43,776 nucleotides of DNA from IMG/VR virus record IMGVR_UViG_2537562190_000013; one strand, written 5' to 3'. This stretch comes from a virus. Lineage: Duplodnaviria > Heunggongvirae > Uroviricota > Caudoviricetes. Numbering within the stretch: position 1 is the stretch's first letter; each line of letters opens with the position of its first letter. Below are positions 3,539 through 30,152 of the stretch, piece by piece. A program made the position numbers and the translations under genes. The notes below the pieces were generated by a model. It worked only from the letters and a program-made list of their open reading frames with translations, was not told the DNA's origin and did not search any database.

Positions 3539-4426
3539 TCAGGCTGCCAGATCATTATTTCCGATGGAAGCATAATAAGCTTTTTCTGCTTCTGCCGGAG
3601 GAATATGGCCCAGCCTTTCCAGCAATCGTCGATTGTTATACCAGTCCACCCACGTTAGTGTGGCCTGTTCCACTTCTGTCCGGTTTTTCCAGCTCTTACG
3701 GTGTATTACCTCCGCTTTGTAAAGACCATTGATGCTCTCAGCCATCGCGTTGTCATACGAGTCGCCAGTACTCCCTGTTGATGCCAGTAATCCGGCTTCC
3801 TTAAGCCGCTGCGTGTAGGCCAGCGATACATACTGAGAACCTTTATCACTGTGATGGATTGTGCCGGACGGCCGACGGGCCCACAACGCCTGCTCCAGTG
3901 CATCCAGCACGAATGTTGTTTCCATGGATGATGAGACCTGCCATCCCACGATGTATCCGGCGAACACATCAATGATGAACGCCACATAAACGAAGCCCTG
4001 CCATGTGCTTACCCAGGTAAAATCAGCCACCCACAACTGGTCTGGACGTTCTGCCACGAACTGACGGTTTACGCGGTCGCATGCGGCAACGGCTTTCCGG
4101 CTGACGGTAGTGCGGACCTTTTTACCCCGGAGAACACCGGCAAGTCCCATAACTGCCATGAGACGTGCCACAGTGCATCTGGCCACTCTGATACCTTCCC
4201 GTAACAACTGACGCCAGACTTTACGCACACCGTATACCTGGTGATTTTCATCGTATACGCGCTGTATCTCTTTCTTCAGCCAGTCATCGTGCTGCGCACG
4301 GGCACTGCGTTTATCCGGATGATGTCGCTGTTGCTGACAATGGTAATACGTTGACGGGGCAATATGCAGTTCGCTGCATACCGGTCCGACCCCGTACTGC
4401 TCACGCAGCTTATCCAGCAGTGGCAT
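3539..4426 (-). CDS. IS3-family transposase OrfB (DDE integrase core)
   Basis: 295-aa [16 protein letters not shown]...; DDE region ...SDKGSQY...YDNAMAESINGLYKAE... Confidence 0.85.
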   Translation of the reverse strand: MPLLDKLREQYGVGPVCSELHIAPSTYYHCQQQRHHPDKRSARAQHDDWLKKEIQRVYDENHQVYGVRKVWRQLLREGIRVARCTVARLMAVMGLAGVLRGKKVRTTVSRKAVAACDRVNRQFVAERPDQLWVADFTWVSTWQGFVYVAFIIDVFAGYIVGWQVSSSMETTFVLDALEQALWARRPSGTIHHSDKGSQYVSLAYTQRLKEAGLLASTGSTGDSYDNAMAESINGLYKAEVIHRKSWKNRTEVEQATLTWVDWYNNRRLLERLGHIPPAEAEKAYYASIGNNDLAA

Positions 4427-4752
4427 TATTTTTTCCAGAGGCGGTCGAACTCCGCCTTCGCAAAATAAGCGGAAGCCTGGCGAAGGATATCGTTACTGCG
4501 GCGCAGTTCACGATTTTCACGTTCCAGCTCTTTCAGACGCTGACGTTCAGCGGTGGTGAGTCCACCATCACCACTCCCGGTATCCCGCTCATGCTGGCGA
4601 ACCCAGACACGCAGAGTCTCCGGCGTACAGCCAATCTTTGGGGCAATGGAACAAATTGCCGCCCACTGTGAGTCATATTCATCCTGACTTTCCAGAACCA
4701 TACGAATCGCCCGCTGACGGACTTCGGGGGAAAAACGAGTATTTTTAGTCAT
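4426..4752 (-). CDS. IS3-family transposase OrfA (HTH, leucine-zipper region)
   Basis: 108-aa [22 protein letters not shown]...; overlaps orfB across an AAAAAA slippery stretch, typical of -1 frameshift-generated OrfAB. Confidence 0.85.
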
Positions 4753-12933: not shown

Positions 12934-13314
12934 TTAATGACCTGCTGCGCGGAGTTTTCCGTCAGGTTCACCGGCAAGAGTCAGTAATTGTCCCTGGTCT
13001 TCCTGCAGAATAGTCAGGCGACCACCGCGATTGACATACATCGGCGTTTCGGTGGTGTCTTCTTCAGAAATTTTCCCGCGGTTAGTCGGGCGAACATATG
13101 AGAGTTTGTGTTTGATTTTCACACGGTTCTCATCAAATGGTTCGATTTCCAGGTTGAGTGAGACCTTACCTTTGGTTTTCGTGTTCATCACACCGGAAGC
13201 GACTTCACTGAGAACTGCGCCGATTTTGGTTTCAAATACGCCGCCGTCCAGCTCCCCGATAAATGCCTGCACATCAGTACTGCGTTCGCTAGCCATTTTG
13301 CTGCTCCTCATCAT
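12934..13314 (-). CDS. Hypothetical early-left protein (YfdP-like)
   Basis: 126-aa ORF. Confidence 0.45.
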   Translation of the reverse strand: MMRSSKMASERSTDVQAFIGELDGGVFETKIGAVLSEVASGVMNTKTKGKVSLNLEIEPFDENRVKIKHKLSYVRPTNRGKISEEDTTETPMYVNRGGRLTILQEDQGQLLTLAGEPDGKLRAAGH

Positions 13315-13733
13315 ATCGACCCTGCAAGGCCGATTAGTTTCTCCACAAAACAGAGAAGAACACCTGCGGTGGCAGCCGCCCGGATGGATTGGGTTATGAG
13401 CCCGTCGTCCGGTGATGCTCTTCTCTGTTTTGTAAAAAGGACGCTACCAGCCGGAAGCAAGGGTACAAACTGGTACCGCCAGGACTACACACAGCATAAA
13501 GTTGTGGTGCCGGGTGCCTCCCGGTGCCTGGCGAAGGTTGCACACCAGACGGGTGGGTATCCACAGAAGGTCGACTGTCAGCCTCAACCTTAACCCGCGT
13601 GCGCTGAGCCGCATTCACCACAACGCTAAGGATTCTCTTTGGTTGAAAATACTTAGCTGTTATGTGCCTGTCTTTTCACCACTTCAGGCTCGGTGGTATC
13701 CTTTTAAGCCCGTATACATAAAAGGAAAATCAA

Positions 13734-13979
13734 ATGACTTTTGATGAAAAAGAACTTGATAATGCAATTAATAAAATCATCGTAACGTCGCTCTTTTCCT
13801 GTCTCAGCGACACTCAGCAGAAACGGTTCTACGAATCGGCTTTCAACATGATCGAGCGTTGTTGTTTCTGCGATGCCGACGAGTTACCTGAAAAAATCAG
13901 GAAACAGTTGGCTGATGCTCTTCGAGTGCGACTTTCTGACCAATTTTCTGAAATGTGCTCTCCGAATTTGGACAAATAG
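13734..13979 (+). CDS. Hypothetical small protein
   Basis: 81-aa ORF with AAGGA ribosome-binding site 7 nt upstream; convergent overlap with 13897-14172. Confidence 0.4.
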   Translation: MTFDEKELDNAINKIIVTSLFSCLSDTQQKRFYESAFNMIERCCFCDADELPEKIRKQLADALRVRLSDQFSEMCSPNLDK

Positions 13980-14172
13980 AAAAAGGCCATTTCCATTCAG
14001 GGTCTGATGGAAATACTTCAGCCTGTTCCAAAGCACGGCGTAAAGAGAACACAACTCCAGCCATAATCTGATGTTTCCCATTGGTCCAGCTATCGCCGCT
14101 CTGATCTACAGGGGCGGCTATGTCGTATGACCAAACGACTTCACAGTTATTGTTTAAAATCTGGACTTTCAT
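13897..14172 (-). CDS. Hypothetical protein, first gene downstream of the putative leftward early promoter (N/rex position), not N-like
   Basis: ATG at 14172 with AGGTG ribosome-binding site; 91 aa; no arginine-rich motif. Confidence 0.45.
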   Translation of the reverse strand: MKVQILNNNCEVVWSYDIAAPVDQSGDSWTNGKHQIMAGVVFSLRRALEQAEVFPSDPEWKWPFSICPNSESTFQKIGQKVALEEHQPTVS

Positions 14173-14299
14173 TTCATACACCTGCTTTAACATGAGTGCC
14201 TGATGGCACAACATGACTCAACGAATCATCCTGGACTTCATATGCCCCAGGCGGCTACTTCGTGGGCGTCCTGCCTGTTCGTTATCTTTGATATAAAAT

Positions 14300-14313
14300 C
14301 TAACTTAACTTAG
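14300..14313. promoter_or_regulatory. Operator-like site CTAACTTAACTTAG (oL-like) overlapping a candidate leftward promoter
   Basis: Shares the CTAA-N5-CTTAG pattern with the two sites in the cI-cro intergenic region. Confidence 0.45.
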
Positions 14314-14378
14314 TTATTATGGCAAGAGAAAACACCAAACTTTTCTTAGTTCGGTGCCTTAGTTAGAGAAGAGAGGTC

Positions 14379-15005
14379 TTAGAGTTCGTATTGAACTCCT
14401 TTGACTACACCAATGATAAGGCAATTACCATTGATAGGGATGTTGGGATACCGAGGATTTAATGGCACTAAAAACTTTTGAGGGCCATCGATGACTAATT
14501 TTTTTACTGTAGCTTCGTTTGTTCCATCAAGTCGAGCGATGACTATTTTTCCATGACGAGGTTCTGCATCTGGATCTACAATCACTGTTGCGCCTTCTGG
14601 TATTGTTGGGAGGCCATTAGGGTTAGTCATGGAGTCACCTTTAACCTCTAATGCAAATGAGTTATCACCAATCTTTAATGATGTATCTACCCACTTGTCC
14701 ACTTCACTAAACACTTCTGCTGCCCTGCACTCAGTAAACTGCCCAGCCTGAACCCACGATATTACAGGAACTCTGCGCATGTTTGTGACGAGTTTGCCTT
14801 CAAACTCAGCACCATAAAGAATGTAATCTATTGACGTATTGAAGAACTTCGCTAATTTCGAAAGTGCCTCCCCACCAGGGGTATTGATGTCTTTCTCCCA
14901 GTACCCCACAGCAACGTCGCTTACTCCACAAAATTTACCCAATTCTTTCTGGGACGTTCCGGTAACTCTTCTCAGAGCTTTTATACGCTGACCAACCGTT
15001 TCCAT
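14379..15005 (-). CDS. cI: CI-like prophage repressor (N-terminal HTH, C-terminal S24 LexA-like peptidase domain)
   Basis: HTH segment QKELGKFCGVSDVAVGYWEKD; S24-like GDSM serine motif and C-terminal Lys (VKKL); divergent from a cro-like gene. Confidence 0.85.
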   Translation of the reverse strand: METVGQRIKALRRVTGTSQKELGKFCGVSDVAVGYWEKDINTPGGEALSKLAKFFNTSIDYILYGAEFEGKLVTNMRRVPVISWVQAGQFTECRAAEVFSEVDKWVDTSLKIGDNSFALEVKGDSMTNPNGLPTIPEGATVIVDPDAEPRHGKIVIARLDGTNEATVKKLVIDGPQKFLVPLNPRYPNIPINGNCLIIGVVKGVQYEL

Positions 15006-26987: not shown

Positions 26988-28717
26988 GCCGGAAATCTTA
27001 CCCCAACGTAAATGCTGCCAATCAGTATGCCCGTGATGTTGTGCGCGGAAAGATTGTGGCCTGCCAGTTTGTGATTCAGGCCTGCCAGCGCCATCTTGAT
27101 GACCTGATGGCGGAAAAAAGTAAGTCGTTTCGTTACCGCTTCGACAAGGACCTGGCTGAACGGGCCGCCAAATTTATTCAGCTGTTGCCGCACACCAAGG
27201 GTGAGTGGGCATTCAAGAGGATGCCCATCACGCTGGAGCCGTGGCAGCTATTTGTGGTCTGCTGTGCGTTTGGCTGGGTCAATAAAGGGTCCCGGCTGCG
27301 CCGCTTCCGGGAGGTGTATACCGAAATCCCCCGTAAGAACGGCAAATCGGCAATCTCTGCCGGTGTTGCCCTGTATTGTTTTGCCTGTGATAACGAGTTT
27401 GGCGCGGAAGTGTATTCCGGTGCCACGACAGAGAAACAGGCGTGGGAAGTCTTTCGCCCGGCGCGACTGATGTGTAAACGCACACCCATGCTGACGGAAG
27501 CGTTCGGGATTGAGGTTAACGCCTCAAACATTAATCGTCCGGAGGATGGCGCGCGGTTTGAACCGCTGATCGGTAACCCCGGTGATGGTTCATCACCCCA
27601 CTGTGCGGTGGTGGATGAATATCACGAGCACGCCACCGATGCGCTTTACACCACGATGCTTACCGGGATGGGGGCGCGACGTCAGCCACTGATGTGGGCC
27701 ATTACTACTGCCGGGTACAACATTGAGGGGCCGTGCTACGACAAGCGACGGGAAGTTATCGAGATGCTCAACGGGTCGGTACCCAACGATGAACTGTTCG
27801 GGATCATCTATACCGTTGACGAAGGCGATGACTGGACCGACCCGCAGGTGCTGGAAAAAGCTAACCCGAATATTGGCGTGTCGGTTTATCGCGAATTTTT
27901 GTTAAGTCAGCAGCAGCGTGCGAAAAATAACGCCCGTCTGGCAAACGTCTTTAAAACAAAACACCTCAATATCTGGGTGTCGGCGCGTTCGGCGTATTTC
28001 AACCTGGTGAGCTGGCAGAGCTGCGAGGATAAATCACTGACCCTTGAGCAGTTCGAGGGGCAGCCGTGCATTCTGGCCTTTGACCTGGCGCGTAAGCTGG
28101 ATATGAACAGCATGGCGCGACTTTATACCCGCGAGATTGACGGTAAAACGCATTACTACAGTGTGGCTCCGCGCTTCTGGGTACCGTATGACACGGTGTA
28201 CAGCGTCGAGAAAAATGAAGATCGCCGGACAGCCGAACGCTTTCAGAAATGGGTGGAAATGGGCGTTCTGACCGTTACCGATGGTGCGGAGGTGGATTAT
28301 CGCTACATCCTCGAGGAGGCCAAAGCGGCGAACAAAATCAGCCCGGTCAGTGAGTCACCCATCGACCCCTTCGGGGCGACCGGGTTGTCACATGACCTTG
28401 CTGATGAAGACCTGAATCCCGTCACTATCATTCAGAACTACACCAACATGTCCGACCCGATGAAAGAGCTGGAAGCGGCAATTGAATCGGGGCGCTTTCA
28501 TCATGATGGCAATCCCATCATGACCTGGTGTATCGGCAATGTGGTCGGCAAAACCATTCCGGGTAACGATGATGTGGTGAAACCCGTCAAAGAGCAGGCG
28601 GAAAACAAAATTGACGGTGCAGTTGCGCTGATTATGGCGGTTGGCAGAGCCATGCTGTACGAGAAAGAAGACACGCTGTCTGACCACATTGAGTCCTATG
28701 GGATCCGCTCGCTTTAA
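26984..28717 (+). CDS. Terminase large subunit
   Basis: 577-aa ORF downstream of small subunit; central [10 protein letters not shown] (Walker-B-like acidic motif); coupled ATGA overlap. Confidence 0.8.
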
Positions 28718-28728
28718 CTGAGGTAATT

Positions 28729-28911
28729 ATGATCATGCTGATTCTCGCGCCTCTGGTGGGCGTGCTGGGGGCGCTTTTGCTGGCGTATGGTGCCTGGCTG
28801 ATTTATCCCCCGGCGGGGTTTGTTGTTGCCGGGGCGTTGTGCCTGTTCTGGTCGTGGCTGGTAGCGCGATATCTCGATCGTACACAGCTGTCTGTTGGTG
28901 GAGGTAAATAG
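28729..28911 (+). CDS. Small hydrophobic protein
   Basis: 60-aa ORF with GAGGT ribosome-binding site, two hydrophobic helices. Confidence 0.4.
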
Positions 28912-30152
28912 TGTTCTTTTCGGGATTATTTCAACGAAAAAGTGACGCACCGGTGACCACGCCAGCAGAGCTGGCGGATGCCATCGGGTTGTCCTACGAC
29001 ACCTATACCGGAAAGCAGATCAGCAGTCAGCGGGCCATGCGACTGACGGCGGTTTTTTCCTGCGTCAGAGTGCTGGCAGAGTCGGTCGGGATGTTGCCCT
29101 GCAATCTGTATCACCTGAACGGCAGCCTGAAGCAGAGAGCCACCGGCGAACGTCTGCATAAACTGATCTCCACGCATCCCAATGGCTATATGACGCCGCA
29201 GGAGTTCTGGGAGCTGGTGGTCACCTGTCTGTGCCTGCGGGGAAACTTTTACGCCTACAAAGTGAAAGCATTTGGCGAAGTGGCTGAACTGCTGCCCGTC
29301 GATCCCGGCTGTGTGGAACCGAAGCTTAACAGTAGCTGGGAGCCGATCTATCAGGTCACATTCCCGGATGGCTCCACGGATGTACTGAGCCAGGAGGATA
29401 TCTGGCATGTGCGCACGCTGACGCTGGACGGACTGGTGGGGCTGAATCCCATCGCCTATGCCCGCGAGGCAATATCGCTGGCGGCAGCGACCGAAGAGCA
29501 CGGGGCCAGACTGTTCAGCAATGGCGCGGTGACGTCGGGTGTGTTGCGTACAGAGCAGACGCTGTCAGATCAGGCTTATGAGCGCCTGAAGAAAGATTTT
29601 GAGGAGCGTCACACCGGGCTTGGCAATGCTCACCGCCCGATGATCCTTGAGATGGGGCTGGACTGGAAGTCGATGGCGCTGAACGCCGAGGACAGCCAGT
29701 TCCTGGAAACCCGCAAGTTTCAGCTTGAAGAAATCTGTCGTCTGTTCCGGGTGCCGTTGCACATGGTGCAGAACACCGATCGCGCCACCTTCAACAATAT
29801 CGAAGAGCTGGGGCTGGGATTTATCAACTATTCACTGGTGCCGTATCTGACCCGCATCGAACAGCGGATCAACACCGGACTGGTACGAAAAAGTAAGCAG
29901 GGCGTTTATTACGCCAAATTTAACGCCGGGGCGTTACTGCGCGGGGATATGAAGTCCCGTTTTGAAGCCTACGCCACCGGGATCAACTGGGGAATTTACT
30001 CTCCCAATGACTGCCGCGACCTGGAAGATATGAATCCGCGTCCCGGTGGTGATGTCTATCTCACACCGATGAACATGACCACGAAACCCTCCGATGGCAG
30101 TAAAGCCGGTAAGCAGAAGGATAACGCCAATGCAGACGAAACAACGTCTTGA
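28911..30152 (+). CDS. Portal protein (HK97 family)
   Basis: GTG start with GGAGG ribosome-binding site; 413 aa; position after terminase. Confidence 0.75.
   Translation: MFFSGLFQRKSDAPVTTPAELADAIGLSYDTYTGKQISSQRAMRLTAVFSCVRVLAESVGMLPCNLYHLNGSLKQRATGERLHKLISTHPNGYMTPQEFWELVVTCLCLRGNFYAYKVKAFGEVAELLPVDPGCVEPKLNSSWEPIYQVTFPDGSTDVLSQEDIWHVRTLTLDGLVGLNPIAYAREAISLAAATEEHGARLFSNGAVTSGVLRTEQTLSDQAYERLKKDFEERHTGLGNAHRPMILEMGLDWKSMALNAEDSQFLETRKFQLEEICRLFRVPLHMVQNTDRATFNNIEELGLGFINYSLVPYLTRIEQRINTGLVRKSKQGVYYAKFNAGALLRGDMKSRFEAYATGINWGIYSPNDCRDLEDMNPRPGGDVYLTPMNMTTKPSDGSKAGKQKDNANADETTS

Follow-up and report, generated by a model that had tools for sequence, protein, structure and literature searches.

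The stretch of DNA analysed here, called the window below, is the virus record IMGVR_UViG_2537562190_000013 at its full length of 43,776 nucleotides (nt), and it is an SfV-type lambdoid prophage in which the minus strand carries, in order, cI, a probable early-left promoter, an orf33-like gene, a block of RNA elements, yfdP, yfdQ, yfdR and further genes up to xis and int. Our subject is the block in front of yfdP (positions 13,315 to 13,733), which probably encodes no protein and holds three conserved RNA modules, strung along the minus strand and read in the direction of the early-left operon. Over positions 13300-13740 the identity is 99.8% with Shigella phage SfV and 100% with prophages of several Escherichia coli genomes, and 2785 of 5426 complete E. 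coli genomes contain a match to these 441 bp. The features of the locus are as follows.

14379-15005, minus strand: cI, at the upstream end of the leftward gene order
14297-14325, minus strand: probable early-left promoter, TTGCCA-17-TAGATT, from a promoter scan
13897-14193/14214, minus strand: orf33-like gene, the first leftward gene, matching phrog_3195
13734-13979, plus strand: open reading frame (ORF) of 81 amino acids with a good Shine-Dalgarno sequence and a full-length match to phrog_3311
13435-13625, minus strand: module 1, a structured small RNA of about 191 nt that starts with CGUUGUGGUGAAU and ends at a terminator U-tract
13337-13438, minus strand: module 2 ("el2"), a tRNA-like three-way junction, from fold and covariation
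13315-13344, minus strand: module 3, GGAGAAAC (13344-13337) followed by the hairpin AUCGGCCU-UGCA-GGGUCGAU (13334-13315), in the 5' untranslated region (5' UTR) of yfdP
12934-13296, minus strand: yfdP-like gene, the protein gene that comes first after the RNA modules, from the Prokaryotic Genome Annotation Pipeline (PGAP) annotation of an identical prophage, matching phrog_204

A preliminary description of this DNA had set the block between the yfdP-like gene and the first leftward gene. The yfdP side of this statement holds, with the start of yfdP most likely at 13296 and not at 13314 (the PGAP call, with a strong GAGGAG Shine-Dalgarno sequence), but the ORF beginning at 13734, taken there as the leftward gene, lies on the plus strand. 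The richness in GC that it reported is clear, as the GC content is 0.53-0.63 across 13300-13650 and 0.31-0.47 on the flanks. The perfect 15-bp inverted repeat is also there, with ACAAAACAGAGAAGA at 13345-13359 and its exact complement at 13419-13433, and no other inverted repeat in the window is as long (12-nt seed, arms at most 200 nt apart), as just three were detected and the other two are short palindromes; by our own estimate, about 0.008 perfect 15-bp repeats within 200 nt would be expected by chance. At the curated cut-offs of Rfam, the block gives no match.

In a permissive Rfam search, STnc100 (RF02076) matched over the whole length of its model at 13646-13431, minus strand (34.1 bits, E = 2e-5), and the match ends in a hairpin followed by UUUUU. 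The corresponding RNA, module 1, folds into a multi-hairpin core plus a terminator (z = -2.5), with these parts, all on the minus strand.

13616-13624: 5' strand of the closing helix P1, GUUGUGGUG, pairing with 13509-13501
13597-13612: hairpin 1, GCGGCUCAGCGCACGC, following AAU
13505-13526: invariant 22-mer CACCGGGAGGCACCCGGCACCA, which forms the hairpin CCGGG/CCCGG and the start of the P1 3' strand (13509-13501)
13481-13500: single-stranded linker UUUAUGCUGUGUGUAGUCCU of about 20 nt, unpaired in the minimum-energy fold
13434-13480: intrinsic-terminator-like hairpin, GGCGGUACCAG...CUGGUAGCGUCC then UUUUU, aligning to the terminator of the STnc100 model

This is the architecture of the STnc100 core, namely a UGGUG/CACCA closing helix, AAU, hairpin 1 and then the invariant 22-mer, with a 3' terminator after a single-stranded linker. 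The core is closed by GUUGUGGUG/CACCACAAC, and GUUGUGGUGAAU at 13624-13613 (minus strand) covers the 5' strand of this helix and the AAU. The 22-mer is the best-conserved part of the STnc100 model alignment, and its exact sequence recurs in more than 230 loci, namely 110 stretches that come from many genera of Enterobacteriaceae and over 120 viral contigs. In 205 of 231 distinct contexts GGUGAA stands 60-110 nt upstream of it, and the two together make the closing helix NNNNUGGUG...CACCANNNN, whose outer pairs covary. Among 14 diverse cores of the window type (first hairpin GCGGCUNAGCGCNCGC) the outer pairs of P1 change as GC/AU, UA/GC and UA/CG, and across 121 distinct cores P1 is paired in 93%, compared with 78% after shuffling. 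The short direct repeats listed in the preliminary description exist, but they are strands of module 1 hairpins: CCGGG/CCCGG belongs to the invariant 22-mer and the other to the GUGGAUACCCAC hairpin.

A homologue with mapped ends is available in sRNA-17 of E. coli K1 RS218, a 193-nt RNA of an mEp460-like prophage, whose ends were determined by 5'/3' rapid amplification of cDNA ends and which was seen by Northern blot (PMC7719688). We placed it on mEp460 through its published full-length primers, and they define a 194-nt RNA (L233 2511-2704) running from CGUUGUGGUGAAUGCG to the terminator U-tract. Its equivalent in the window is 13625-13435 (191 nt), at the same locus and with ends that correspond to the mapped ones. 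Both RNAs lie between the immunity region and yfdP on the same strand, and they share the first 16 nt (CGUUGUGGUGAAUGCG), the P1 3' strand and the terminator, whereas the body between the P1 strands and the linker before the terminator differ in sequence; where the core of module 1 has the STnc100-type 22-mer, sRNA-17 has CCGGAGAUCAGCACCGGUCACCA. Positions 13290-13481 of the window are 96% identical to mEp460, and since this is the only part that the mEp460, cdtI and Stx2c phages share with the window, the body of the small RNA looks like a swappable cassette. The authors of the sRNA-17 study found no Rfam homologue for it, and the inverted-repeat element downstream is not described there (PMC7719688).

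The same comparison can be extended to PasD1 and PasD2, small RNAs of enteropathogenic E. coli (EPEC) known from Hfq RIL-seq (in which interacting RNAs are ligated and sequenced) (PMC8550237, bioRxiv 10.64898/2026.05.13.724894), for which a common ancestor with STnc100 has been argued in a 2026 preprint (bioRxiv 10.64898/2026.05.13.724894). We located PasD2 of EPEC E2348/69 from the published RIL-seq coordinates. Like STnc100 and PasD, module 1 is prophage-borne and has the UGGUG/CACCA closing helix followed by AAU and the first hairpin, the hairpin CCGGG-AGGCA-CCCGG before the closing strand, and a single-stranded seed region before an intrinsic terminator. It differs in the first hairpin (GCGGCUCAGCGCACGC in module 1, CCCCCUGUGCGGAGGGG in STnc100/PasD) and in the linker, which reads UGUGUAG... 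where PasD has UGUGAG. The context is different as well, because STnc100 and PasD, which often adjoin phage tRNA genes, usually belong to late regions, downstream of Q, stx or an esterase gene (PasD2 sits after Q, and the STnc100 copies above the cut-off sit beside tRNAs), whereas module 1 is in the early-left operon, between the immunity region and yfdP. The copies above the cut-off often occur as tandem pairs (L158 6983-7984, L231 1363-1843, L183 7149-7610 and L023 3418-3847), the pair in L158 lying directly downstream of three phage tRNA genes. PasB was considered as a further relative and rejected, as it lies between tail genes.

The linker deserves attention on its own. Its UUGCUGUGUGUAGUC is kept in ST64B, phiES15, L334 and L122, directly 5' of terminators that are otherwise unrelated, and at the position of the linker PasD carries its published seed UGUGAG, the positional analogue in the window being UGCUGUGUGUAGUC. 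The linker, including UGCUGUGUGUAG, may thus be a candidate seed for base pairing, and by analogy with PasD, Hfq binding together with seed pairing would be a candidate mode of action for module 1.

What identifies module 1 as a small RNA is its family resemblance, its architecture, the covariation of P1 and the ends that it shares with a mapped homologue, and on this comparison of sequences it is probably the local allele of sRNA-17 and a divergent member of an STnc100/PasD superfamily. In the mechanism that we propose, module 1 would be made in the lysogen and would stop at its own terminator, so that yfdP would stay silent, and it would use the conserved linker to regulate mRNAs in trans, the way Hfq-bound PasD uses UGUGAG, which has the same position. 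RS218 expresses sRNA-17 with yfdP silent, and in the sRNA-17 deletion of E. coli K1 the strongest changes were a rise of yfdP by about 95-fold and a rise of yfdR (PMC7719688, Table 1). These two are the genes immediately downstream of sRNA-17, and the large change of yfdP may be a cis effect (termination being lost, or transcription running on out of the cassette) and not one of regulation in trans.

Several observations weigh against this interpretation and have to be set beside it. The 34.1 bits are below the curated STnc100 cut-off of 47; PasD2 (41.4 bits) and its positional homologues in phiES15 (40.6), SJ46 (41.9) and ST64B (35.1) are below it too, which makes the window RNA about as close to STnc100 as PasD is. 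Module 1 and sRNA-17 agree in 117 of 202 aligned columns (58%), so the bodies of the two RNAs are not the same. The resistance cassette inserted in the deletion strain may itself account for the rise of yfdP. As for the terminator, its loop is long, it has five U only, and 13476 and 13444 form a G-G mismatch, where C at 13444 gives SfV and most relatives a perfect terminator stem. A search for targets of the linker within the window matched only the linker itself. The promoter scan gave no convincing sigma-70 promoter directly upstream of module 1, which may therefore instead be cut out of the early-left transcript. The last of these points concerns el2, described below, whose suggested processing role is speculative, RNase P, RNase III, protein binding and a decoy function all being candidates.

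In L009, L010, L015 and L034 a window-type STnc100-like core was seen that has no terminator and stands about 30 nt upstream of a Shine-Dalgarno sequence and a start codon. Judged from these arrangements, the core can apparently be a 5'-UTR element in some genomes.

The inverted repeat belongs to a separate element, module 2 or el2, which lies downstream of the terminator of the small RNA. The suggestion in the preliminary description of a structured small RNA is thus borne out for 13625-13435 but does not apply to the repeat. On the minus-strand RNA the repeat is the closing helix P1 of el2 (13433-13414 with 13364-13345), which is extended by UUUUU/GGAGA to about 25 bp and closes a Y-shaped fold of -51.2 kcal/mol (z = -7). 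The two arms enclosed by it are the following, both on the minus strand.

13383-13406: invariant core of hairpin A, GACGGGCUCAUAACCCAAUCCAUC, with the apex GGG-CUCAUAA-CCC at 13403-13391
13366-13379: hairpin B (GCGG-CUGCCA-CCGC), its stem kept with different sequences

We fetched the loci of relatives by exact motifs and compared 25 non-redundant ones over the 30 specified pairs of el2. In this set 96.4% of the cells are paired, and sliding the partners by 1-3 columns lowers the figure to 40-53%. Seven pairs (33 cells) changed on both sides, a result reached in none of 500 shuffles. The repeat is perfect only in the lineage of the window, one stem position being mismatched in 18 of the 25 relatives; it is kept through compensatory changes, and the relatives carry no conserved protein gene here, so that on both points by which the preliminary description could have been refuted, it stands. 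Pairs of G with U are frequent in the stems (e.g., one pair is G-U in 10 of the 25 relatives and another is U-G in 22), which indicates that el2 acts as RNA of the minus strand. ST64B, Klebsiella phage Kp4866-6 and many viral contigs keep the structure with altered sequence, and the stem of hairpin B, for example, reads GCUG/CAGC in ST64B and GCGUUG/CAACGC in the Klebsiella phages GZ7 and Chronis. The exception is a stretch of 24 nt, GACGGGCUCAUNAYCCAAUCCAYC, which is invariant, and the pattern GACGGGCTCATWAYCCAATCCAYC was found in more than 120 viral contigs.

At its apex, hairpin A carries CGGGCUCAUAACCC, which reproduces exactly the anticodon stem-loop of the E. coli initiator tRNA metZ. 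The identity covers the 14 nt CGGGCTCATAACCC of metZ tRNA-fMet and then stops, and it includes a 7-nt loop with U33 and a purine at 37 on three closing G-C pairs, the hallmark of initiators; some relatives have A37U or a G-U third pair. Like a tRNA, el2 has its helices in the order closing stem, anticodon-like arm and second arm, and like tRNA-fMet it carries the 7-nt loop CUCAUAA on three G-C pairs. Unlike a tRNA it has neither a D arm nor the T-loop consensus, its anticodon-like arm is long and interrupted, and in the window the closing stem measures 20-25 bp and has no CCA. ARAGORN, which searches for tRNA and tmRNA, found none in the window and nothing at el2 in L239-L241, so that no cloverleaf was recognised, and el2 matches no Rfam family, with no RF00005 match even at E <= 10.

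Among 130 copies, el2 follows a T5 run in 114 and the 3' end of a tRNA in 13, its place being right behind an RNA 3' end, either a terminator or a tRNA. In Klebsiella lambdoid phages, tRNA-Asn and tRNA-Arg immediately precede it in the interval from Q to the lysis genes. Its closing stem there, GGCCUG/CAGGCC, has only 6 bp and (G/A)CCA comes next, and these copies look like a tRNA shape that lacks the D arm and ends in NCCA. The Klebsiella hits labelled "tRNA-Arg/Asn" were considered as evidence that the interior of el2 is itself a tRNA, and this was rejected, as they overlap el2 by only 2 nt, el2 being just 3' of the tRNA.

Three further arrangements were recorded around el2. A Klebsiella-type late operon (L273 5897-6260, plus strand) has tRNAs, then el2 and then, about 220 nt further on, an mEp460-type STnc100-like core. 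In the window the order is the opposite, and the two RNA modules are thus found together in two arrangements. At L319 1077-1203 (minus strand) and L302 1800-1925 (plus strand) the place of the STnc100-like RNA upstream of el2 is taken by 126 nt that match the tRNA model (40-44 bits), probably with an insertion. In Salmonella D23580, STMMW_20251 (534 bp, L234 ~1932-2465) is the yfdP homologue sb37 with 162 nt added on its upstream side, which run across el2, and its start is probably over-extended.

As far as Rfam and the other searches go, el2 appears to be a conserved RNA that has so far been uncatalogued. If transcripts from the early-left promoter read past the terminator of module 1, el2 could fold and act as a processing or insulating signal, with RNase P cutting at the tRNA-like junction or RNase III in the helix of about 25 bp as candidates; we put this forward with low confidence. 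Such processing would free the yfdP-int mRNA from the stable RNA and leave it with a structured 5' end. A bolder proposal is that el2 is a functional D-armless mimic of an initiator or CAU-anticodon tRNA, kept by temperate enterobacterial phages as a decoy or sponge for a host factor or as punctuation for RNase P. We regard it as tentative, with the odds against it, and a literature search for initiator-tRNA mimics in prophages returned nothing relevant.

Module 3 follows el2 directly in front of yfdP. Its hairpin is predicted in a fold of 416 nt, and relatives keep GGAGAAA plus a hairpin with the loop UUGCAG, UGGCAG or GUGCAGA on unrelated stems. The motif is also present in loci that have no el2 (L054, L052 and L024), where the core is joined directly to it. 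Module 3 is a conserved 5'-UTR motif and a candidate protein-binding or nut-like site.

This leads to the strongest of the alternatives, which was also raised in the preliminary description, namely that the block acts in cis in antitermination, in a put-like or nut-like way, one of the conserved RNAs, or the GGAGAAAC motif with its UGCAG-loop hairpin, modifying RNA polymerase so that it would read from the early-left promoter past the terminators into yfdP...xis-int. The setting is reminiscent of HK022 put and lambda nut, as there is a structured RNA in the leader of an early operon, no identifiable N and genes behind terminators. The phage has no recognisable N protein, a point of the preliminary description that has been checked in part (Pfam gives no match for orf33). 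Between the early-left promoter and the first downstream protein gene lies one intrinsic terminator or more (two in ST64B), yet the ST64B gene is induced together with the leader RNA. In ST64B transcriptomics, STnc1310, STMMW_20251 and STMMW_20261, downstream of cI, are transcribed and rise together on peroxide and nitric oxide, and from the published coordinates STnc1310 lies upstream of the ST64B core and ends at another terminator; as it ends at a terminator and nevertheless rises with the genes downstream, read-through does occur. The loop of module 3 is conserved on covarying stems, as in boxA/boxB, and persists where the other modules are missing, and some window-type cores stand directly in 5' UTRs with no terminator (L009, L010, L015 and L054).

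Against this, the lambda boxA CGCUCUUA has no match with at most one mismatch on the minus strand at 13297-14330, which speaks against a nut analogue of the lambda type. The HK022 PL/PR region with putL and putR (27600-30100) has no match to the STnc100 type or a related one even at E <= 10, a test of similarity to put that is indirect, as Rfam has no put family. PasD, sRNA-17 and STnc100, the relatives of the window RNA, are autonomous small-RNA genes (one of them the allelic variant with mapped ends), that is, discrete RNAs which end at their own terminators and are abundant in lysogens, and unlike put and nut these homologues are stable small RNAs that act in trans. Also, yfdP is silent while sRNA-17 is expressed, and el2 is found in late operons that Q already serves. 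Antitermination in cis is therefore, in our opinion, unlikely, although more plausible than the other alternatives. Taken together, what the preliminary description observed is confirmed and its interpretation is partly supported: a structured RNA is present, the small RNA being probably a new allele of a known family, a put-like element finds no support, and the repeat is an element apart.

The likeness of el2 to tRNA allows a less likely explanation, by which el2 is a decaying pseudogene of a phage tRNA(CAU), with no function of its own and the repeat being incidental. The 14-nt identity to the tRNA-fMet anticodon stem-loop, the Klebsiella copies that end tRNA arrays with an acceptor-like stem and NCCA, and the silence of the tRNA model and ARAGORN would all agree with a relic. 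However, in phages of E. coli, Salmonella and Klebsiella the stems change by compensation around a 24-nt core that does not vary, which indicates selection and not decay, and el2 keeps its place in two quite different operon contexts. We consider this explanation improbable.

A site acting at the DNA level (a cruciform, a protein-binding palindrome or a recombination site) is very improbable, even with a perfect 15-bp repeat and a mosaic boundary with the mEp460, cdtI and Stx2c phages nearby, at about 13481. The many G-U positions of the stem pair only on the minus-strand RNA and would be A-C mismatches on the other strand, which makes the protein-binding site offered in the preliminary description unlikely as a site on DNA, and the loop sequences are conserved as well. 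An att-type tRNA fragment is rejected because the tRNA identity ends after 14 nt.

Least credible of all, and in our view hardly worth retaining, is that the block codes for protein, either as a gene with a frameshift (PGAP calls a pseudogene, a "frameshifted hypothetical protein", at ~13311-13621 on the minus strand) or as a plus-strand gene of PHROG 3651, for although the yfdP frame of SfV is open for 114 codons upstream, the plus-strand ORF 13369-13593 matches phrog_3651 (E = 3e-49) and the minus-strand ORF 13311-13460 matches phrog_33599, there are zero Pfam matches, the invariant motif stands in different frames relative to yfdP across relatives (several with in-frame stops in the CUCAUAA loop), the indels between the window and ST64B are 1, 1 and 20 nt, not multiples of three, the phrog_3651 frame would run antisense through yfdP and is broken here, and PGAP sets a similar pseudogene over the validated PasD2 RNA. 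The earlier observation that the block has no convincing ORF is upheld by the same facts, and the PHROG matches in the block, to families made up of ORFs that had been called across it, are judged spurious. The C-to-G change at 13444 (G on the minus strand) in the lineage of the window also creates an in-frame TAG, which probably triggers the "frameshifted hypothetical protein" of PGAP. Reading the block as RNA explains the misannotations here, that is, the PGAP pseudogene, the spurious PHROG families and the over-extended STMMW_20251.

Some observations concern the surroundings. The plus-strand ORF 13734-13979 overlaps the 3' end of the orf33-like gene convergently by 83 nt and is absent from the SfV and PGAP annotations; if real, it would be an oppositely oriented gene within the early-left region. 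The early-left leader GAACAGGCAGGACGCCCACGAAGUAGCCGCC starts after the probable promoter and is common to ST64B, where it lies downstream of the operator-like repeats. Its first 60 nt or so (GAACAGGCAGGACGCCCACGAAGUAGCCGCC...GGAUGAUUCG; window 14230-14290 and ST64B L234 2950-3010, both minus strand) are conserved though the genes that follow differ, and this leader could be a further regulatory RNA element. ST64B also has an isrK-family RNA (L234 5069-5145, plus strand, 64 bits) downstream of a ymfL-like gene. In the window, an ALIL pseudoknot (RF01497, the frameshift signal of IS3-family transposases) at 4355-4471 on the minus strand (120 bits) marks an insertion sequence inside the prophage.

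A small regulatory RNA within an early-left-type operon of a lambdoid prophage has a precedent in DicF, of the dicB operon of the Qin prophage. DicF, which RNase processing sets free, lacks a large structured core, and it has neither sequence nor Rfam similarity to module 1.

For the phages that carry these elements, the allele of SfV type joins STnc100, PasD and sRNA-17 in what is probably one structured superfamily with an invariant core and with swappable bodies and seeds, whose members are now placed in the early-left operon and not only in late regions. If the tentative proposal that el2 mimics an initiator tRNA were true, the targets of the decoy might be VapC-type toxins that cut tRNA-fMet, other anticodon nucleases, methionyl-tRNA synthetase (MetRS), TilS, or initiation factor 3 (IF3) with the 30S P site; alternatively, el2 might be tRNA-like punctuation cut by RNase P, coupling a stable RNA gene to the mRNA downstream. 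In that case it would stand for a class of tRNA-like phage RNA that is new, and about half of the sequenced E. coli genomes would have it in their prophages.

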